From Eledone cirrhosa (taxonomy: Eukaryota): DNA of 64,000 nucleotides. The notes below the pieces were generated by a model. The model was not told the origin of the DNA. It searched no databases and saw nothing but the letters and a program-made list of their open reading frames with translations. Positions 1,000 to 51,561 of the stretch are shown piece by piece; the first letter of the stretch is position 1, and the number at the start of each line of letters is the position of its first letter. The stretch covers positions 287,246,001-287,310,000 of the forward strand of contig OZ024740.1 of NCBI GenBank assembly GCA_964016885.1, written 5' to 3'. Position numbers and translations under genes: made by a program.

Positions 1000-3515
1000 G
1001 TGTAATAACTGAAACACAGTGTGTGACATGGCTTAACAACTGTATCACTTACTTAGTGTGTGACATGGTGTAATAACTGCGTAATATAGTGTGACATGGT
1101 ATAGCAACTGTGTAACACAGTGTATGACATGACAGCAACTGTGTAACTCACCTGGTGTGTGGTGTGGTGTAATAACTGTGTAATATAGGGTGGCATGGTC
1201 TAGCAACTGTGTAATATAGGGTGACATGGTATAGCAACTGTGTAATATAGTGTGGCATGGTATAGCAACTGTGTAATATAGTGTGACATGGTCTAGCAAC
1301 TGTGTAATATAGGGTGACATGGTCTAGCAACTGTGTAATATAGTGTGACATGGTATAGCAACTGTGTAATATAGTGTGACATGGTCTAGCAACTGTGTAA
1401 TATAGTGTGACATGGTCTAGCAACTGTGTAATATAGTGTGGCATGGTATAGCAACTGTGTAATATAGTGTGACATGGTCTAGCAACTGTGTAATATAGGG
1501 CGACATGATCTAGCAACTGTGTAATATAGTGTGACATGGTATAGCAACTGTGTAATATAGTGTGACATGGTATAGCAACTGTGTAATATAGTGTGACATG
1601 GTCTAGCAACTGTGTAATATAGTGTGACATGGTCTAGCAACTGTGTAATATAGTGTGACATGGTCTAGCAACTGTGTAATATAGTGTGGCATGGTCTAGC
1701 AACTGTGCAATATAGTGTGACATGGTATAGCAACTGTGTAATATAGTGTGACATGGTCTAGCAACTGTGTAATATAGGGTGGCATGGTATAGCAACTGTG
1801 TAATATAGGGTGGCATGGTATAGCAACTGTGTAATATAGTGTGACATGGTATAGCAACTGTGTAATATAGTGTGGCATGGTATAGCAACTGTGCAATATA
1901 GTGTGACATGGTATAGCAACTGTGTAATATAGGGTGACATGGTATAGCAACTGTGTAATATAGGGTGGCATGGTATAGCAACTGTGCAATATAGGGTGGC
2001 ATGGTATAGCAACTGTGTAATATAGTGTGAGATGGTATAGCAACTGTGCAATATAGTGTGACATGGTATAGCAACTGTGTAATATAGTGTGACATGGTCT
2101 AGCAACTGTATAATATAGGGTGGCATGGTATAGCAACTGTGCAATATAGGGTGGCATGGTATAGCAACTGTGTAATATAGTGTGACATGGTATAGCAACT
2201 GTGTAATATAGTGTGGCATGGTATAGCAACTGTGCAATATAGTGTGACATGGTATAGCAACTGTGTAATATAGGGTGACATGGTATAGCAACTGTGCAAT
2301 ATAGTGTGACATGGTATAGCAACTGTGTAATATAGGGTGGCATGGTATAGCAACTGTGCAATATAGTGTGACATGGTATAGCAACTGTGTAATATAGGGT
2401 GGCATGGTATAGCAACTGTGTAATATAGTGTGACATGATCTAGCAACTGTGTAATATAGTATGACATGGTCTAGCAACTGTGTAATATAGTGTGGCATGG
2501 TCTAGCAACTGTGCAATATAGTGTGACATGGTATAGCAACTGTGTAATATAGGGTGGCATGGTATAGCAACTGTGTAATATAGGGTGACATGGTATAGCA
2601 ACTGTGTAATATAGTGTGGCATGGTATAGAAACTGTGTAATATAGGGTGGCATGGTATAGCAACTGTGTAATATAGTGTGACATGGTATAGAAACTGTGT
2701 AATATAGGGTGGCATGGTATAGCAACTGTGTAATATAGGGTGGCATGGTATAGCAACTGTGTAATATAGTGTGACATGGTATAGCAACTGTGTAATATAG
2801 GGTGGCATGGTATAGAAACTGTGTAATATAGTGTGACATGGTCTAGCAACTGTGTAATATAGTGTGACATGGTATAGCAACTGTGTAATATAGGGTGGCA
2901 TGGTATAGAAACTGTGTAATATAGAGTGGCATGGTATAGCAACTGTGTAATATAGTGTGACATGGTATAGCAACTGTGTAATATAGGGTGGCATGGTATA
3001 GCAACTGTGTAATATAGTGTGACATGGTATAGAAACTGTGTAATATAGGGTGGCATGGTATAGCAACTGTGTAATATAGTGTGAGATGGTATAGCAACTG
3101 TGTAATATAGTGTGACATGGTATAGCAACTGTGTAATATAGGGTGGCATGGTATAGCAACTGTGTAATATAGTGTGACATGGTATAGAAACTGTGTAATA
3201 TAGGGTGGCATGGTATAGCAACTGTGTAATATAGGGTGGCATGGTATAGCAACTGTGTAATATAGTGTGACATGGTATAGCAACTGTGTAATATAGGGTG
3301 GCATGGTATAGCAACTGTGTAATATAGTGTGACATGGCATAGCAACTGTGTAATATAGGGTGGCATGGTATAGCAACTGTGTAATATAGTGTGACATGGC
3401 ATAGCAACTGTGTAACTCACCTCGTTTGTGACATGGTGTAATAACTGTGTAACACAGTGTATGACATGGTATAGCAACTGTGTAACACAGTGTGTGAGAT
3501 GGTATAGCAACTGCA
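1000..3515. repeat. 31-bp minisatellite (GTATAGCAACTGTGTAATATAGTGTGACATG), about 80 copies
   Basis: 31-bp period with a few recurrent variant sites; degenerate units at both edges; source of all repetitive minus-strand ORFs 1045-3529. Confidence 0.97.
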
Positions 3516-13021: not shown

Positions 13022-13412
13022 GAAGGCGCATGGCTTAGTGGTTAGAGCATTGGGCTTGCAATCGAAAGGTTGTGAGTTCAATTCTCAGACTGGGTGATGT
13101 GTTGTTTCCTTGAGCAAGACACTTTATTTCACATTGCTCCAGTTTACTCAGCTGTAGAAATGAGATGATAGGACTGGGGTCCCTATCATTCCACTGCAAA
13201 GTGCTCATGGAGGTGCCACGGAAAAAAAGCACCCAGCATTCACTGTAAATGAGGTTGGTGTTAGGAAGGGCATCCAGCTGTAGAAATCAAGCCAGAATCA
13301 GTTCCCATATGAGCAAGACAAAGTCAGCCGACTGGACACTGCCCACAACAGGACAACCCGTCTAACCCATGCTAGCGTGGAAGAACGGACGTAAAACGGT
13401 GATGATGATGAT
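13022..13412 (+). mobile_element. tRNA-derived SINE with RTE-derived 3' tail (family A)
   Basis: A box TGGCTTAGTGG, B box GAGTTCAATTC, central CCTTGAGCAAGACACTT domain, RTE 3'UTR tail ending in (ATG)n. Confidence 0.8.
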
Positions 13413-24439: not shown

Positions 24440-25620
24440 TAAAATAACTGTTGGTAATGAAAATAATGTTAAACTGTCAGTAATCAATCTAGTGTTAAAT
24501 TGTTGGTAATGAAACTGGTGTTAAATTGTTGATAATGAAACTGGTGTTAAACTGTTAATAATGAATCTGGTTTTAAATTGTTGGTAATGAATCTGGTGTT
24601 AAATTGTTAGTAATGAAACTGATATTAAATTGTTGGTAATGAATCTAGTGTTAAACTGGTAGTAATGAAACTGTTAGTAATGAATCTGGTGTTAAATTGT
24701 TAGTAATGAAAATAATTGTTAAACAGTTGGTAATGAATATAGTATTAAACTGGTGTTAAACTGTTGGTAATGAATCTGGTATTAAATTGTTGGTAATGAA
24801 TCTGGTGTTAAACTGTTGGTAATGAATCTGGTGTTAAATTGTTGGTAATGAATCTGGTGTTAAACTGTTGGTAATGAATCTTGTGTTAAATTGTTGGTAA
24901 TGAATCTGGTGTTAAACTGTTGGTAATGAATCTGGTGTTAAACTGTTGGTAATGAATCTGGTGTTAAATTGTTGGTAATGAATCTGGTGTTAAACTGTTG
25001 GTAATGAATCTGGTGTTAAATTGTTAGTAATGAAAATATTGTTAAACTGTTGGTAATGAATCTAGTGTTAAATTGTTAGTAATGAAAATATTGTTAAATT
25101 GTTGATAATGAATCTGGTATTAAACTATTGGTAATAAATCTAGTGTTAAATTGTTAGTAATGAAAATATTGTTAAACTGTTGGTAATGAATCTGGTGTTA
25201 AACTGTTGGTAATAAATCTAGTGTTAAATTGTTAGTAATGAAAATATTGTTAAACTGTTGGTAATGAATCTGGTGTTAAACTATTGATAATGAATCTGGT
25301 GTTAAACTGTTAGTAATGAAATTGGTTTTAAATTGTTGGTAATGAATCTGGTATTAAACTGTTGGTAATGAAAATATTGTTAAATTATTAATTGTTAAAT
25401 TGTTAATTGTTAAAATGCTGATAATGAAACTGATCTTAAATTGGTGATTGTTAAACTGTTAGTAATGGAACTCGTGTAAAATTGTTGGTAATGAAACAGA
25501 TGTAAAACTGTTTGTAGTTCCAACAGATGTAAAACCTATTGGTAGTTTACAGATGTAAAACTTGGTAATGACGCAATTATAAGATAATTATTTGTAAACA
25601 AACTAATGTTAAAATTGTTA
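24440..25620. repeat. 26-bp minisatellite (CTGTTGGTAATGAATCTGGTGTTAAA)
   Basis: 26-bp period, homogeneous in the centre and degenerate at the edges. Confidence 0.93.
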
Positions 25621-32039: not shown

Positions 32040-35000
32040 TTGTTGCTGTATTCTATCGGTTAGTTCTATCGCCTTGACGGCGACCCTCTCTCTACCTCAC
32101 AATTTCCCTCACACCACCATAGCCTATTCGACCCATCAAACCTCAGCATGCCATTTCTTCTGCTACTACTACCTAACTAACACTCTCCTCCCCTGTCCCA
32201 GCCCAACACACCCTGCCATTATTCCACCACCACTGTTCTTCTAGCCCTGAATTTTCCTACCATTATGGATGGATGAGCTGAGAATAAATTGGAGCAACTC
32301 TGAATTAATAGATGAAATGAATATGAATCTGCGAGCTACCAAACACCCATGTGAAACGCCAATCCAGAAAGAGAAAGCACACACACACACCCCTGCAAAA
32401 ATCGACTCTTCCCTACGAGTGTCGACAAATGCCCAAAACTCCGAGTTGGTACCATCAATGTAAGCACAATGAAAGGAAGAGCAGGAGAAATCGTAGAAAT
32501 GCTAGAGCGAAAGGAAATTGATGTATGCTGTGTGCAAGAGACTAGATGGAGAGGAGAGTCTGCTAGAGTCCTTGTAGGAAAAAGTCGGTGCTACAAATTT
32601 TTCTGGGTGTGAAATGACGATGGGATGGGTGGTGTAGGTATACTACTAGCTGACAAGTGGGTAGATAAAGTAATCTCAGTGCACAGGGTAAATGCAAGAA
32701 TCATTAAACTCAGACTAGTCCTGAATAAAACAATTACCACGATAATATCAGCTTACACACCCCAATCGGGGTTGACAGACGAACTTAAGGATAGGTTTTA
32801 CGAGTCCCTAATGCACACTACTGCTCTAACAAACGACAATGACTTCCTAATCATCGCAGGAGATTTTAACGGACACATAGGTAAACACTGCGACAGCTTC
32901 AATGGAGGCCATGGGGTTGGCACAAGAAACGAGGAAGGATTCAGACTTCTAGAATTCTGCGACGCCAATGACATGTCGATATGTAACACAAACTTAAAAA
33001 AACCTGACAACCACCTGATCACCTATAGATCAGGGGAGCATTCTAGTCAGATAGATTTTATCCTCATCAGAGGACGTGACAGATGGACAGTCGTAAACAC
33101 AAAAGCCTTCCCTAGTGAGGAATGTACATCCCAACATAGCTTAGTTGTCAGCGACCTCACAGTCAGAACTAGACGAACCTGGAGAAGAACGATCTGGAAG
33201 CTGAAAGACCCCTCAACCAGTAACAGATTTAAAGATATTTTACTCAACGCCTACGACAGTAAAGAAGAACAGATAGAGACATTCAATGTAGAAGAGCACT
33301 GGGAGTTCCTAAAAAATAACTTACTAGAGGCGACGGATGAGGTCTGTGGCTGGAGTAAGACCACAAGCAGGAGGAGAGTGACTTGGTGGTGGAACAATAA
33401 GGTAGATGAGGCAGTTAAGGCCAAGAGACAGGCATGGAAAGAATGGAAGAACGGGGGGAGCAGGGTACATTACATAGAGACCAACAGGGAAGCTAGGCGA
33501 CAAGTATACTTAGCTAGGAGGGAAGCAGAGGATAGAAAATTCAAGCATGTTTTGCAACGTGAGGACCAGAAACAGGAGGTGTTCAAGATTGCGAGGCAGT
33601 GTGTCAGAGAGAATTGTGATGTCATTGGAGAGAAGTGTATCCGGAATGATAAAGGTGAGCTTGCTCTCACAAGTGCTGAGAAGAAAGATGCATGGAAGAG
33701 TCATTATGATAGATTACTAAATGAGGAGAATGCATGGGAAGAAGAGACCCTACCCCAAGTAGATCCTATAGAGGGGCCAGCAGTACAAGTCAGCAGCAGC
33801 GTAGTAAGTAAGGCAATCAAAGATATGAAGATGGGGAAGGCAACCGGTCCATCGGGTATAGCTGCCGAGATGCTGAAGGCATCTGGGTCTGTAGGTCACA
33901 CTATAACCACATGTATTGTTAACCAGGTAATACTAGGTGTCATACCAAAAGATTGGTGCAGTAGCATGATTGTCAACTGCTACAAAGGTAAAGGTGATGC
34001 ACTAGATAGAGGAAACTATAGAGGTATAAAGCTGATAGACCAGGTCATGAAAGTAACAGAAAGAGTTATAGCACAGTTGATTAGGGACCGGGTGAAATTA
34101 GATGAGATGCAATTTGGGTTTGTACCAGGAAGAGGCACCACTGATGCCCTCTTCCTTGTGAGGCAGTTACAGTAAAAGTACCTAACTAAAAGTAAGCCAC
34201 TCTACCTGGCATTCATCGATCTTGAGAAAGCCTTTGACAGAGTTCCACGTGCTGTAATCTGGTGGGCTCTTAGAAAACTAGGAGTAGATGAATGGCTTGT
34301 GAAAGCGGTACAAGCCATGTATAGGGGAGCAGTCAGCAAAGTTAGGATTAGCAATGAGTATAGCGAGGAATTTAGTGTACAGGTTGGGGTCCACCAGGGC
34401 TGTTCTTAGCCCCTCCTCTTCATCATAGTCCTGCAGGCAATAACGGAGGAGTTTAAGACCGGATGCCCATGGGAACTCCTGTATGCTGATGACCTCGCAC
34501 TTATAGCTGAATCTATGGTAGAACTAGAGAAGAAATTCCAAACTTGGAAGCAGGGACTAGAAAGAAAGGGTCTCAAAGTCAACATGACAAAGACTAAGGT
34601 CCTTGTAAGTAGACGAGAAGACAGAACCCAGATTCCCTCAGGGAAATGGCCTTGCTCAGTATGTAGGAAAGGTGTAGGTAGGAACTCCATTCTCTGCCCC
34701 AAATGCAAACAATGGGTACACAAGAGATGTAGTGGGATCTCAGGAAACTTAATTAAGAATGTAGGCTTCACATGCAGCAGCAAACAGCCACAGGAAACAA
34801 GTACCACCAATCTCTGGGAGGGCTCTGTAGAAACAGTAGACAGCTTCTGCTACCTAGGTGACCGAATTAGCAGCGGAGGTAGGTGTTCAGAAAGTACAAT
34901 AACTAGGGTAAGAACGGGATGGAAGAAGTTTAGGGAACTACTACCACTGCTAGCTGCAAAAGGCTTCTCCCTCAAAATGAAAGGCAGACTGTATGATGCG

Positions 35001-35710
35001 TGTATCCGAACAGCGATGTTGCATGGTAGTGAGACCTGGGCGCTGAAGGTGGAAGACTTACGTAGATTAGAGAGAAACGAAGCCTGCATGCTCCGATGGA
35101 TGTGTAATAGTAATATACGCGAACGACAAAGCATAAATGAATTGAGAGAGAGACTGAGCATAAGAGGAATCAAATGCTGTGTGCAGGAGAGGCGGTTGCG
35201 TTGGTATGGACATGTGATGCGTATGAAGGATGACAGCTGCATAAAAAGGTGCAGAGCACTAGAAGTCGATGGAAACCGCGGAGTGGGCAGACCCAAGAAG
35301 ACCTGGGATGAGGTGATAAAAGCCGACCTTACCCAATTACACCTCTCAAAGGCAATGACACACGACCATGACCTCTGGCGTCACGCAGTAATACAGAGTA
35401 CCCGACCTCCCATGGGTACAAGCTGAAGCATTTAGACAATATGCCCCCACACCCTCCCACTGCAAGGTGGTCGTGGAGGTGCCATGGCAAAAAAGCACCC
35501 AGCCCACACTGTAAAGTGGACGTGTAGGCGCCACGAAAAAGCACCCAGCACTCACTGTAAATGAGGTTGGTGTTAGGAAGGGCATCCAGCTGTAGAAATC
35601 AAGCCAAATCAGTTCCTGTATGAGCAAGGCATGGTCAGCCGACCAGACACTGCCCACAACAGGACAACCCGTCTAACCCATGCTAGCGTGGAAGAACGGA
35701 CGTAAAACGG

Positions 35711-46280: not shown

Positions 46281-47632
46281 CTAATAATAAACAGAGAAAT
46301 GGCCTTGAATGGTATTGAAAATAAACTTCTGGAGCAAAGTACATAAAAAATATATGCAATTATTCACTTTACAAAAAAAAATAAAAACACTCCCAAGCAA
46401 CTCTCCTCACCGCCACTGCATCCCCCCAATCGATGCCTCCATCAGTATTACTCCTTAGCTACTCCCCCTCTAAAGCCATTAGAACCCCTAACTATGGCAC
46501 CCTAGTAGCTACTCTCTCTCTACCTCTATGCGCACCCTGCACCACCACCCCTTAGTTATTCTTTTCCATCAGTACACCCACCCCGCATGCTATTGACCAC
46601 ACCATCCACACACCCCACCACTATATCTCCTCTTTCCCTACACTATCAGTTACCCTTTCCATTACTTGTCACCCTGTCAAATCACAACAGTCATCATACA
46701 CCATCTCCCTTCTCCTCTCGACCCTCATTAAACTCCACAAACAGATAGGGCTCTTCAGTTGGGACTATCACCAACAACCTCTCTAGTGACAGTGCCACGA
46801 AAATGCACCTGGTACACACTGTAAGGTGGTTGGGGATAGGAAAGGCACACTGCTGTAAGAAAAGAGTCGAAAGGACTCCTTAGTTGTGTCAGGGTATAAT
46901 AACCTCTCTAGTGTTGGTGAACTATACGATAAATGTAAAGTGGTTGGTGATAGAAAGGGTCTCCAGCCATAGAAAGCTTGCTAAACAATGGGTTGGGAGG
47001 ACCTTTCAGTTGTATCAAGAACGTGCTAACCTTCCTAGTGTTGGTGATCTACATGATAAACACCCCAAGTACACGCTGTAATACACATTAGAACATGGAA
47101 CCAATGCAACTCCCGGCATGTCTGGAAGGTTAGTAGACTTGCTTCAGTACTGACTCAGGCTATGAAGACCCGCCCAACTCTTGCTAACAGGGAAAGTGGA
47201 CATTAAATAATGATGATGATGATGACAATACTTTCCTGAAGTAAAAGAAATGCAGCATGTTCAAGAAGAACAATAATAACTTATATATAATTATAACCAT
47301 TAAGGTTTTTAAACTGATTGTATGAGCAATGTATCTTTGAATGTATAACGCTTTAAGCAATTTTAGTAAAATACTAGCAGAATGGCGCGGCGCTGCTCAG
47401 GATTTGCTCTAGGGTTCTTATATATTTGATATATATTTATCCTTATTGAGCCTCGTGAAATAAATACGTTTGTTTATATTTTGTTATTGTGTATGCAAAA
47501 ATATCTGTAGACGAATATATAATTATATATATATATATATATATATATACGTTATTCCGGGTTGAATCGGAGGTAACCACAGTAAGTAAGGTACTCAATA
47601 CATAGCAGAGTATAAAAGTTTTAATATAGATG

Positions 47633-47683
47633 AGATTCTACAGGACTAGAACTGTTTCATTCATTAGAAATCATCAGGAATCT
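47633..47683 (-). ncRNA. Type I hammerhead ribozyme (left arm of inverted repeat)
   Basis: Exact reverse complement of the 48109-48159 motif. Confidence 0.8.
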
Positions 47684-48108
47684 GGGTATCAAAAAATAAA
47701 AATGGTATTTATAGGTCTCTACAAGTGGTAGGAGAGGGTGGGGAGTGGGATGGGTGTAGGTCATTGGTTGATAGAAAAGGGAATTCATTAAAAGCTAATT
47801 CTACAAAGCTATAGTTTTCTTTAATTCTATCGACCATGACTGACCCCCCACTGATCTTATAGACATTTGTTTGCTTAAGAGAAACTTAATGACAAGGAAT
47901 GGTATGCCATCCGGAACCTGTTTATAGAATTCTGTCTGCCCTTGTTACTCTAAAAACATAAATAAATAAAAATAAACTATAGCTTTGTAGAATTGGCTTT
48001 TAATGAATTCCCTTTTCTATCAAACCAATGACCTACACCCATCCCACTCCCCACCCTCTCCTACCACTTGTAGAGACCTATAAATACCATTTTTATTTTT
48101 TGATACCC

Positions 48109-48159
48109 AGATTCCTGATGATTTCTAATGAATGAAACAGTTCTAGTCCTGTAGAATCT
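48109..48159 (+). ncRNA. Type I hammerhead ribozyme
   Basis: AGAUUC-CUGAUGA-UUUCUAAUGAAU-GAAA-CAG[UUCUAGUC]CUGUA-GAAUCU: 6-bp stem I, short stem II, stable stem III, GUA cleavage triplet at 48151-48153. Confidence 0.82.
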
Positions 48160-48171
48160 CATCTATATTAA

Positions 48172-48212
<41 letters not shown>

Positions 48213-48827: not shown

Positions 48828-48863
<36 letters not shown>

Positions 48864-49002
48864 GCACACATATATATATGTACGTATGGATTCACCGAAC
48901 ATTTATTATAATGGTCGGTGTGTTTGTAAACAAACATCCCGTATTAAGCCGTACAGTGTCTAGCAACCATCGTTGCTCATTTGTTCAACACTGACAAAGG
49001 AA

Positions 49003-49043
49003 CGCTGTACTAGTTTCAAGCTTATTAGCTATCGTCAGCAACG
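49003..49043 (-). ncRNA. Minimal type I hammerhead ribozyme
   Basis: CGUUG-CUGACGA-UAGCUAAUAAGCUU-GAAA-CUA-GUA-CAGCG; palindromic ACUAGU stem III. Confidence 0.8.
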
Positions 49044-49463
49044 TATACCTTCCTGCCAGATGGTTGAACATCTGAAAGTATATACTTTCATTATAATAAA
49101 TGTTCGGTGAATCCATACGTACATATATATATGTGTGCATGTATTTCATTTCATTTTACGTCCACTTTTCCCTGCTTGCAAGGGTGGGACTATGTATATA
49201 TATATATATATATATATATACATACTATATATATATACTACTGTACATCTGTATACATATATGGATGTACGTATACATACTTATATTTAAGTAACAGCCG
49301 TACTAAGAGAGAGAAATGAAATTTCGTTTCATTTTTTCCGTTTATCGTTTTCGGTACCCCGGTCGATTAACTCACTCGATATGCAAATTAGGCTGCTCAG
49401 CCGTTAATATGCATAAGGAAAGTATATACTTTCAGACGTTCAACCATCTGGCAGGAAGGTATA

Positions 49464-49504
49464 TGTTGCTGACGATAGCTAATAAGCTTGAAATTAGTAC
49501 AGCG
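49464..49504 (+). ncRNA. Minimal type I hammerhead ribozyme (variant copy)
   Basis: UGUUG-CUGACGA-UAGCUAAUAAGCUU-GAAA-UUA-GUA-CAGCG; C-to-U changes weaken stems I and III. Confidence 0.68.
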
Positions 49505-49785
49505 TTCCTTTGTCAGTGTTGAACAAATGAGCAACGATAGTTGCTAGACACTGTACGGCTTAATTTGGGATGTTTGTTTACAAACACACTGAGCATTATA
49601 ATAAATTTTCGGTGAATCCATACGTACATATATATATGTGTGCATGTATGTATATATATATATTCACATATATATCGCTATTTCAGAGCATTTATTCCAA
49701 TTTCTAATTTCTGCCGGACCGGCAACCGCTCTTTCAAACCAGTTCCTGTACACAGCTAAGTATTCTATAAGTCTCTAGCTGTGTC

Positions 49786-49874
49786 ATTCTCGATAAAAGC
49801 ACTGGATATGTAGTCCTGATGATTTCTAACGAGAATGAAACGCGTAGATTACTTCCCTTGCTTTTATCGAGAAT
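49786..49874 (+). ncRNA. Type I hammerhead ribozyme, array unit 1
   Basis: GUAGUC-CUGAUGA-UUUCUAACGAGAAU-GAAA-CGC-GUA-GAUUAC, plus a 16-bp distal stem I (49786-49801 with 49859-49874). Confidence 0.85.
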
Positions 49875-50095
49875 CTAATTTTAATACGTGACGTATTCTA
49901 TTCTATAGCGATTAGGTCTTCAAAATGTTTATTATAAACATACAGAATATTTTCGAATATTCTATGTCTATATTCACATATATATCGCTATTTCAGAGCA
50001 TTTATTCCAATTTCTAATTTCTGCCGGACCGGCAACCGCTCTTTCAAACCAGTTCCTGTACACAGCTAAGTATTCTATAAGTCTCTAGCTGTGTC

Positions 50096-50184
50096 ATTCT
50101 CGATAAAAGCACTGGATATGTAGTCCTGATGATTTCTAACGAGAATGAAACGCGTAGATTACTTCCCTTGCTTTTATCGAGAAT
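50096..50184 (+). ncRNA. Type I hammerhead ribozyme, array unit 2
   Basis: Same motif; CUGAUGA at 50126. Confidence 0.85.
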
Positions 50185-50405
50185 CTAATTTTAATACGTG
50201 ACGTATTCTATTCTATAGCGATTAGGTCTTCAAAATGTTTATTATAAACATACAGAATATTTTCGAATATTCTATGTCTATATTCACATATATATCGCTA
50301 TTTCAGAGCATTTATTCCAATTTCTAATTTCTGCCGGACCGGCAACCGCTCTTTCAAACCAGTTCCTGTACACAGCTAAGTATTCTATAAGTCTCTAGCT
50401 GTGTC

Positions 50406-50494
50406 ATTCTCGATAAAAGCACTGGATATGTAGTCCTGATGATTTCTAACGAGAATGAAACGCGTAGATTACTTCCCTTGCTTTTATCGAGAAT
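50406..50494 (+). ncRNA. Type I hammerhead ribozyme, array unit 3
   Basis: Same motif; CUGAUGA at 50436. Confidence 0.85.
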
Positions 50495-50715
50495 CTAATT
50501 TTAATACGTGACGTATTCTATTCTATAGCGATTAGGTCTTCAAAATGTTTATTATAAACATACAGAATATTTTCGAATATTCTATGTCTATATTCACATA
50601 TATATCGCTATTTCAGAGCATTTATTCCAATTTCTAATTTCTGCCGGACCGGCAACCGCTCTTTCAAACCAGTTCCTGTACACAGCTAAGTATTCTATAA
50701 GTCTCTAGCTGTGTC

Positions 50716-50804
50716 ATTCTCGATAAAAGCACTGGATATGTAGTCCTGATGATTTCTAACGAGAATGAAACGCGTAGATTACTTCCCTTGCTTTTATCGA
50801 GAAT
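50716..50804 (+). ncRNA. Type I hammerhead ribozyme, array unit 4
   Basis: Same motif; CUGAUGA at 50746. Confidence 0.85.
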
Positions 50805-51025
50805 CTAATTTTAATACGTGACGTATTCTATTCTATAGCGATTAGGTCTTCAAAATGTTTATTATAAACATACAGAATATTTTCGAATATTCTATGTCTA
50901 TATTCACATATATATCGCTATTTCAGAGCATTTATTCCAATTTCTAATTTCTGCCGGACCGGCAACCGCTCTTTCAAACCAGTTCCTGTACACAGCTAAG
51001 TATTCTATAAGTCTCTAGCTGTGTC

Positions 51026-51114
51026 ATTCTCGATAAAAGCACTGGATATGTAGTCCTGATGATTTCTAACGAGAATGAAACGCGTAGATTACTTCCCTTG
51101 CTTTTATCGAGAAT
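51026..51114 (+). ncRNA. Type I hammerhead ribozyme, array unit 5
   Basis: Same motif; CUGAUGA at 51056. Confidence 0.85.
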
Positions 51115-51212
51115 CTAATTTTAATACGTGACGTATTCTATTCTATAGCGATTAGGTCTTCAAAATGTTTATTATAAACATACAGAATATTTTCGAATAT
51201 TCTATGTCTATA

Positions 51213-51252
<40 letters not shown>

Positions 51253-51319
51253 CTACTGTACGTCTGTATACATATATGTATGTACGTATACATACTTATA
51301 TATATATAATTATATATAT

Positions 51320-51561
51320 ATATTGTTATACTTTGGGAGGGTCATGTTGCCAATAAAAGACACACGCACCAGTTGCTTTCACTTCAATTTATTATAATAA
51401 ATTTATAAATTCCTAAATTTATAAATTTATTATAATAAATTGAAGTGAAAGCAACTGGTGCGTGTGTCTCTTATTGGCAACATGACCCTCCCAAAGTATA
51501 ACAATATCGGTTTCAACACACGTTTTCAGATAAAGAATCTTGCTAAACAAATTCAGAAACG

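Follow-up and report, generated by a model that had tools for sequence, protein, structure and literature searches.

Non-LTR retrozymes (LTR, long terminal repeat) have been described in corals, mussels and the axolotl as tandem repeats of 150–450 bp units with a GC content below 50%, each unit bearing a type I hammerhead ribozyme and lacking any LTR or coding sequence (PMC7229834). Circular RNA templates and Penelope helpers have already been proposed for these metazoan elements (PMC7229834), and both the rolling-circle and the Penelope-helper ideas are in print as models (PMC7229834, PMC4209133, PMC7761336). According to a 2020 review, retrozyme repeats show no conserved motif that points to a helper element (PMC7761336), and a 2026 preprint describes the retrozyme life cycle as lacking evidence (bioRxiv 10.64898/2026.07.22.740005); the movement of animal retrozymes is still a model. 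Here, we examined an array of 310-bp hammerhead-bearing units in a 64,000-nt stretch of the Eledone cirrhosa genome (contig OZ024740.1, positions 287,246,001 to 287,310,000, hereafter the window, whose own numbering is used below). It belongs to a retrozyme family in which Penelope inversion and tail are seen at hundreds of near-identical young loci, and which gives two mapped start sites, a single-monomer bottleneck and selection for the ribozyme. As genomic evidence on the open question of retrozyme mechanism, this is unusually clear, and we consider it probable that the arrays are copied, as the main path, by rolling-circle reverse transcription of a 310-nt RNA circle.

The vertebrate non-LTR retrozymes are similar in that they comprise dispersed ~300 bp monomers and multimers related to pseudo-LTRs; there, an origin from pseudo-LTRs is argued, the link with Penelope is drawn from co-occurrence and sequence trees, and the arrays are attributed to local DNA amplification (bioRxiv 10.64898/2026.07.22.740005). 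In the text of that preprint the strings 'tail', 'orientation' and 'mollus' are absent, and 'inverted' occurs in a reference only. Poseidon of Anolis (PMC11167929) and the Naiad/Neptune group (10.1101/2021.04.23.441226) share with the window family an inverted 5'-truncated copy, a tail at one end, AT-rich or (TA)n targets and two internal start sites downstream of the hammerhead. Unlike the window family, however, they encode reverse transcriptase (RT) and GIY-YIG domains, their tail measures 30–40 bp versus ~26–35 here, and hammerhead cleavage was dispensable in vitro for the anole element (PMC11167929). Non-autonomous elements of Chlamys such as MRC1 form a clade without hammerheads, and MRC1-like members resemble autonomous families at their 3' end (10.1101/2021.04.23.441226), whereas no such partner was found here among 50 GIY-YIG loci. 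Compared with the retrozymes of PMC7229834, the present family differs in sequence and host; moreover, an inverted two-arm structure, a tail and (TA)n targeting are not described in the main text of that paper, although its supplement may bear on this. In the open-licence text of PubMed Central and bioRxiv, we found no retrozyme reported to combine inverted arms, a tail and a monomer bottleneck; supplements and subscription papers may hold one.

The array extends over 49659..51225 on the plus strand and comprises 5.03 units of 310 bp in a single arm, whose 3' end merges into (TA)n. An earlier annotation made from the letters alone (the sequence-only reading) had proposed five identical units, and indeed period-310 identity is perfect over 49659–51216, with 0 differences in 5/5 units; Tandem Repeats Finder (TRF) gives 5.1 copies. 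The unit has a GC content of 0.34 (34%), contains no LTR and is non-coding, the longest open frame round the circular monomer being 59 codons with both strands considered. One predicted cut-to-cut monomer of 310 nt corresponds to 49847..50156 (plus strand), and monomer position 1, in the numbering used below, is the base that follows the ribozyme cut. Since it consists of short tandem repeats within 150–450 bp, with a GC content below 50% and a type I hammerhead per unit, and is both non-coding and dispersed, the window element is a non-LTR retrozyme by every sequence feature tested, as the sequence-only reading had suspected. That reading had also raised an assembly artefact as an alternative. 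Contigs of 4/4 public runs, which come from 4 studies, are of unrecorded kind and may include the source sample, contain both the unit and its head-to-tail joint; the repeat is therefore no product of assembly. All four runs carry G at 49881 in the unit. Self-overlapping contigs of 340 nt occur in two of them (X1 and X2), and tandem DNA fits these as well as a circle does.

Each unit carries a 6-bp stem I (GUAGUC/GAUUAC), the core CUGAUGA, a U.U mismatch at the base of a 4-bp stem II, GAAA, the palindrome ACGCGU and GUA; the mismatch had gone unremarked in the sequence-only reading. The five type I hammerheads lie on the plus strand at 49810..49852, 50120..50162, 50430..50472, 50740..50782 and 51050..51092. 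Their CTGATGA cores start at 49816, 50126, 50436, 50746 and 51056, and cleavage is predicted after the A at 49846, 50156, 50466, 50776 and 51086 (49846 + 310k), exactly as had been stated. A 16-bp helix that prolongs stem I (49786..49874, plus strand) is likewise perfect, 49786–49801 being the exact reverse complement of 49859–49874; it is found in every unit and covaries in sister families. The sequence-only reading had called the ribozyme minimal, a term that has to be corrected. By the definitions given in PMC4209133 it is a canonical metazoan type I hammerhead, with a helix I of 6 bp, a helix II of 4 bp and a helix III of 1–2 bp with a palindromic loop; the minimal type of Penelope-like elements has no non-conserved helix III nucleotides and a long helix II, and neither trait is seen here. 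The palindromic tetraloop helix III matches that of HHR_Amex1, while HHR_Amex2 shares the U.U mismatch at the base of helix II (PMC7229834). The Rfam search proposed earlier returned no hammerhead match, either at the gathering score over the window or at E<=10 over 49500–50300, and the Rfam microRNA matches were rejected as TA-repeat noise.

We then considered the predicted folding of one and two units. A folding energy of -67.8 kcal/mol is obtained for the circular monomer (z=-3.7 relative to 100 dinucleotide-shuffled sequences), and in this lone circle the active hammerhead form is predicted to cost 6.7 kcal/mol. In a two-unit transcript, the unconstrained minimum-energy prediction is a strand-exchanged double hammerhead at -109.9 kcal/mol, and forcing two single hammerheads is predicted to be 15 kcal/mol worse. 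These models predict that a lone circle would cleave poorly and that cleavage depends on the dimer, in line with the dimer dependence anticipated by the sequence-only reading; HHR_Amex1 and HHR_Amex2 work better as dimers (PMC7229834).

The array is far from isolated. An internal 25-mer of the unit has 16,541 exact matches in the 3.0 Gb genome, against 0 for the reversed control, and junction patterns reveal at least 1,034 tail ends (monomer position 165) and at least 1,239 short ends (~139) running into (TA)n genome-wide. Other arrays in (TA)n, for which a genome-wide search had been proposed, do exist, and the window array, treated until now as special, is one of >1,200 insertions of a young, high-copy family and an atypical copy of it, with a single arm.

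To describe the anatomy of these insertions, we examined 77 loci (78 records), namely the window, the 18 best BLAST hits, the first 18 loci on contig 1, one further short locus and 40 records picked by their tail end; the 18 loci of contig 1, chosen by the internal 25-mer, represent the unbiased set. In this set, 14/18 loci consist of two arrays in inverted orientation, whose 5' ends meet and whose 3' ends face outward into (TA)n, and all 14 pair one short end (~139) with one tail end (~165 nt past the cut). Arms on both strands were observed in 64/78 records, always with the minus arm first (plus-then-minus, 0). Over the whole sample, including the tail-end-picked records, 138/146 arm ends fall at 138–139 or 160–174, the remaining 8/146 being accounted for by N gaps, the edges of regions and a single rearranged locus. 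Because the stretch is itself TA-like, the position of the short end is uncertain within 130–139. Projected onto one unit of the window, the two putative reverse-transcription start sites lie within 49976..50011 (plus strand), the short site at 130–139 (49976–49985) and the tail site at 165 (50011), and monomer positions 140–165 form the 26-nt tail. Arms have a median length of 3.2 units, the longest reaching ~45, and their 5' ends are scattered over the unit with a mild excess in the first 124 positions (Kolmogorov–Smirnov, KS, p=0.012). In loci L054 and L065, the inversion junction spans the 16-bp helix (positions 250 and 13), a hint that the two arms annealed via the inverted repeat contained in the element.

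An inverted 5'-truncated copy, a tail of 30–40 bp at one end and TA targets are the insertion marks of Penelope-like elements (10.1101/2021.04.23.441226). Moreover, in vitro work with a purified Penelope-like protein showed cleavage and extension of both strands on AT-rich DNA, with synthesis beginning at two neighbouring positions within the RNA that delimit the tail (PMC11167929). Given that the arms, tail and (TA)n targets of the family match this signature, the two arms would represent two complementary DNAs (cDNAs) of one such reaction, and by analogy we infer that the family is mobilised in trans by Penelope-type, endonuclease-bearing machinery. The sequence-only reading had suggested such help in trans, and it is at the level of the family that the inverted arms, the tail and the (TA)n ends agree with it.

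The units of a locus resemble each other much more than those of different loci. Overall, 458/568 full units equal the commonest unit of their own locus, while the 54 loci that have at least 3 near-full units hold 24 haplotypes between them, the commonest of which accounts for 12/54 loci. Both arms carry the same haplotype in 45/47 loci, compared to 148/2,162 cross-locus pairs (6.8%). Allele shares within loci are bimodal: alleles are present in all units or all but one in 110 cases, in a single unit in 83, in two units in 11, and at intermediate levels in 10. This is illustrated by a rare allele of the window, T at monomer position 35 (T35; G-to-T at 49881), which occurs in 73 units genome-wide, either as 7 whole arrays on three backgrounds or as 8 lone units in G35 arrays, and never at intermediate levels. 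One lone T35 unit, in L037, is identical to the window unit and could be its ancestor. A 14-unit array combines T35 with T295, a combination of which a second copy is absent from the assembly; its parent could be missing from this haploid assembly. As a side observation, the T35 change arises at a few times the average per-allele rate. We rejected T35 as a strong mutation hotspot, the census counting 8 lone units in ~16,500 and the seven lone units first seen having been picked by similarity to the window, and we also rejected T295 as unique to one locus, given that its lineage comprises 174 units and only the combination with T35 is unique.

Since one variant unit has come to fill all units of both arms, a monomer stage is needed, and the data point to one functional monomer copied many times per locus, most likely as a circle. 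The monomers could also be linear, cut molecules, with the enzyme jumping from end to end to generate the tandem. Penelope elements are indeed known to form partial tandems (10.1101/2021.04.23.441226), and haplotype switches occur in 2/47 two-arm loci. However, with the commonest haplotype in only 12/54 loci, such jumps predict mixed arrays, a prediction largely refuted by the homogeneity within loci; they also predict stops or errors at the cut, whereas the junctions are exact and 2/140 arms stop within 5 nt of it, against 4.5 expected if stops were uniform. We therefore regard jumping between linear monomers as very unlikely.

Local satellite expansion, favoured for vertebrates (bioRxiv 10.64898/2026.07.22.740005), would instead start from the insertion of a single pseudo-LTR-derived unit, which then grows by unequal crossing-over. 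Private variants recur periodically in three long loci, L179, L158 and L047, which implies that long arrays also grow by DNA block duplication. As the origin of the arrays, this process would require the separate growth of two inverted arms at most of >1,000 loci, with units staying near-identical; most private variants are confined to one unit (83, against 11 in two units), and the selection on locus-wide variants described below would be left unexplained. We give this explanation very little weight.

We next examined whether the variants that have spread over a locus differ from private ones in their effect on the ribozyme; L043 (many indels), indel alleles and clustered variants were dropped before counting. 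Among locus-wide substitutions in the stems, the long helix or the core, pairing is kept in 7/7 and the invariant core bases are never affected, the sole core position that varies locus-wide being the free position 7 (16 loci). By contrast, single- or two-unit substitutions in the same regions keep pairing in 2/20, with damage in 18, 5 of them in the core (Fisher p=4e-5 for pairing, locus-wide versus single- or two-unit; p=0.003 for damage versus all other sites). Locus-wide changes spare the ribozyme and private ones do not; inserted copies therefore decay freely while founders keep intact ribozymes. This pattern in the substitutions argues that selection on the ribozyme acts at the template stage.

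Conservation is also seen beyond the main family. Older sister retrozyme families of 313–324 nt share its tail box (L031:7353–7667, L046:2470–2784, L114:655–976 and others), and tail-box matches exceed those of the main family's 25-mer by ~5,000. Eight sister units (313–324 nt) align with the window unit and retain the tail box and helices. Double changes affect 19/76 predicted pairs in this alignment, including compensatory ones in stem II and the long helix. One core pair is C3-G8 in 4 and U3-A8 in 5 of the 9 sequences, a switch that possibly happened once; the C3-G8 pair is backed by a rescue experiment cited in PMC11167929.

Could an uncut, linear array transcript account for these patterns? 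In such a scheme, Penelope-type twin priming would act on a long transcript with no circle, and array length would reflect 5' truncation. The same inverted arms, tail and shared haplotype are expected, parents can be long (one arm has ~45 units), and the anole element used uncut RNA in vitro (PMC11167929). On the other hand, with an uncut linear template alone, a new variant that arose in one unit could not come to occupy the whole of both arms, yet this is observed for T35, locus-wide on three backgrounds, and for the 14-unit T35+T295 array. It also predicts selection against the ribozyme in every unit, not for it. Furthermore, a private substitution is carried by 17% of 540 full units today, so that linear runs predict up to ~25 mirrored cases (144 mirrored units at the 17% rate), whereas 1/29 unit-private substitutions is mirrored in the other arm. 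Overall, we hold this explanation to be rather unlikely.

Because a ribozyme active in every unit destroys long transcripts, the selection in its favour speaks against uncut multimers being the principal template. Linear monomers joined by end-to-end jumps should give mixed haplotypes and stops at the cut, neither of which characterises the arrays; a circle fits all three points. We therefore favour rolling-circle reverse transcription of the 310-nt RNA circle, the origin put forward by the sequence-only reading and now upheld by family-level patterns in haplotypes and ribozyme selection. In this model, an array would be transcribed on the hammerhead strand, and neighbouring units would pair via ACGCGU as a double hammerhead, as in the predicted fold, and be cut after GUA. 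By analogy with PMC7229834, the ligation of the monomer would probably fall to a host enzyme of the RtcB type. A Penelope-type RT/GIY-YIG protein, such as that studied in PMC11167929, would cut both strands of a (TA)n site and prime at two neighbouring internal positions of the RNA, ~139 and ~165 nt downstream of the ribozyme cut, where the ends are observed in the genome. Each cDNA would then circle the template several times and stop at a random point, and the joining of the two would yield the observed arrangement of two inverted arrays with 3' ends outward. At the window locus, only the arm primed at the short site would be present, with its 5' end fused to the TA target.

Several observations weigh against this model. 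The anole element did not require hammerhead cleavage in vitro (PMC11167929), and only 1/9 Xenopus retrozyme dimers cleaved (bioRxiv 10.64898/2026.07.22.740005). In L194 the haplotype switches ~2.4 units from the 3' end, at the same offset from the priming sites in both arms, as an uncut linear template would have it, which fits a mosaic multimer template; in L166 it switches in one arm only, and neither mid-array switch is explained by a single circle. The periodic variants of L179, L158 and L047, a sign of later DNA block duplication, also count against it. Stem I gains a bulge in 8 loci through two locus-wide one-base insertions that were kept out of the selection count, and the mirror test loses force if the parent arrays were younger, with fewer variants, than present-day ones. 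In addition, the window locus itself has neither inverted arm nor tail, and an end homologous to the unit was found in 0/50 GIY-YIG loci (blastn of the unit; nhmmer with the clan profile).

A bolder version is that a viroid-like RNA circle mutates, or even replicates, as RNA before being written back into chromosomes by rolling-circle reverse transcription from both cut strands; we consider this doubtful. If it were true, each of the >1,200 arrays would record a single RNA molecule that had been under ribozyme selection, and any haplotype lacking a genomic parent, such as the 14-unit T35+T295 array, would have arisen in RNA. The anatomy of the family makes the circle-template step testable by genome census and in vitro and bears on tandem formation in Penelope elements, and a 310-nt RNA copied into long concatemers by a Penelope protein would be a compact template for studying the enzyme.

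RT and GIY-YIG families are numerous in this genome, with open frames of up to 1,096 codons, and some carry similar hammerheads. We screened them for an autonomous partner, using a Pfam GIY-YIG scan (10,596 candidates, 150 scored, 50 loci examined). When the unit was compared by blastn with 20 tail-box loci and the 50 GIY-YIG loci, and the clan profile by nhmmer, only nested insertions of sister retrozymes were recovered. In one autonomous family, the hammerhead likewise combines U.U with a palindromic stem III and the element ends lie ~123 and 170–180 nt past the cut, with no sequence match to the unit. This likeness in layout would be expected if a protein-coding Penelope element had the unit as its pseudo-LTR and the arrays were its truncated multimers, an alternative also raised by the sequence-only reading. 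Yet 0/36 family loci screened for open frames continue from the unit in register into an RT frame, and the clan profile matches no element end in the 50 GIY-YIG loci; we judge the pseudo-LTR explanation the least credible of all. An RT beside L037 was rejected as a continuation of the unit, being a separate nested insertion.

At the window locus, the array landed in an internal TA stretch of another hammerhead-bearing repeat. The left part of this host element (49413..49650, plus strand) has its core at 49469, and the right part (51249..51300, plus strand) continues the sequence that ends at 49650, as in other copies. At the 5' junction (49651..49675, plus strand), a short (TA)n runs directly into the TA-rich stretch of the unit itself, at monomer position ~123, and the inverted arm is absent; at the other end, the array stops at the family's short site in the 3' (TA)n target tract (51216..51248, plus strand). 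Flanking (TA)n tracts had been reported on both sides, and both are present, but only the right one is long (~16 repeats), the left having only ~6 (49651–49663). The host belongs to a third hammerhead family, seen at 48858–49650 (cores 49038 on the minus and 49469 on the plus strand) and at L037:9020–9850, with a palindromic stem III and a unit of ~480–510 bp that is tandem elsewhere; it is probably another retrozyme.

A second hammerhead family occupies 47550–48175, with a core at 48115 and an inverted copy, a 4-bp stem III and U.U at stem II. It forms two inverted arms in (TA)n, one with a ~70-nt tail, and a first look gave 1,637 candidates genome-wide. As a partner of the main family it was rejected, the likeness being confined to the ribozyme core (score 57 versus shuffles up to 63); an adjoining RT frame was found in 0/20 of its loci. 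Further along the window, a 92-bp perfect inverted repeat at 51320–51507 corresponds to the 3' end of a Penelope-like RT/GIY-YIG family found in L037; it represents a truncated insertion, short and with two arms. A non-LTR (LINE-type) element at 32613–35423 has endonuclease and RT frames, with a PHD-finger match after the RT. Finally, long minisatellites with strong G skew are present at 1058–3513 and 24446–25372 (31 bp x 79 and 26 bp x 36), and a tRNA-like Rfam match at 13029–13092 (33 bits) is likely the head of a short interspersed element (SINE).
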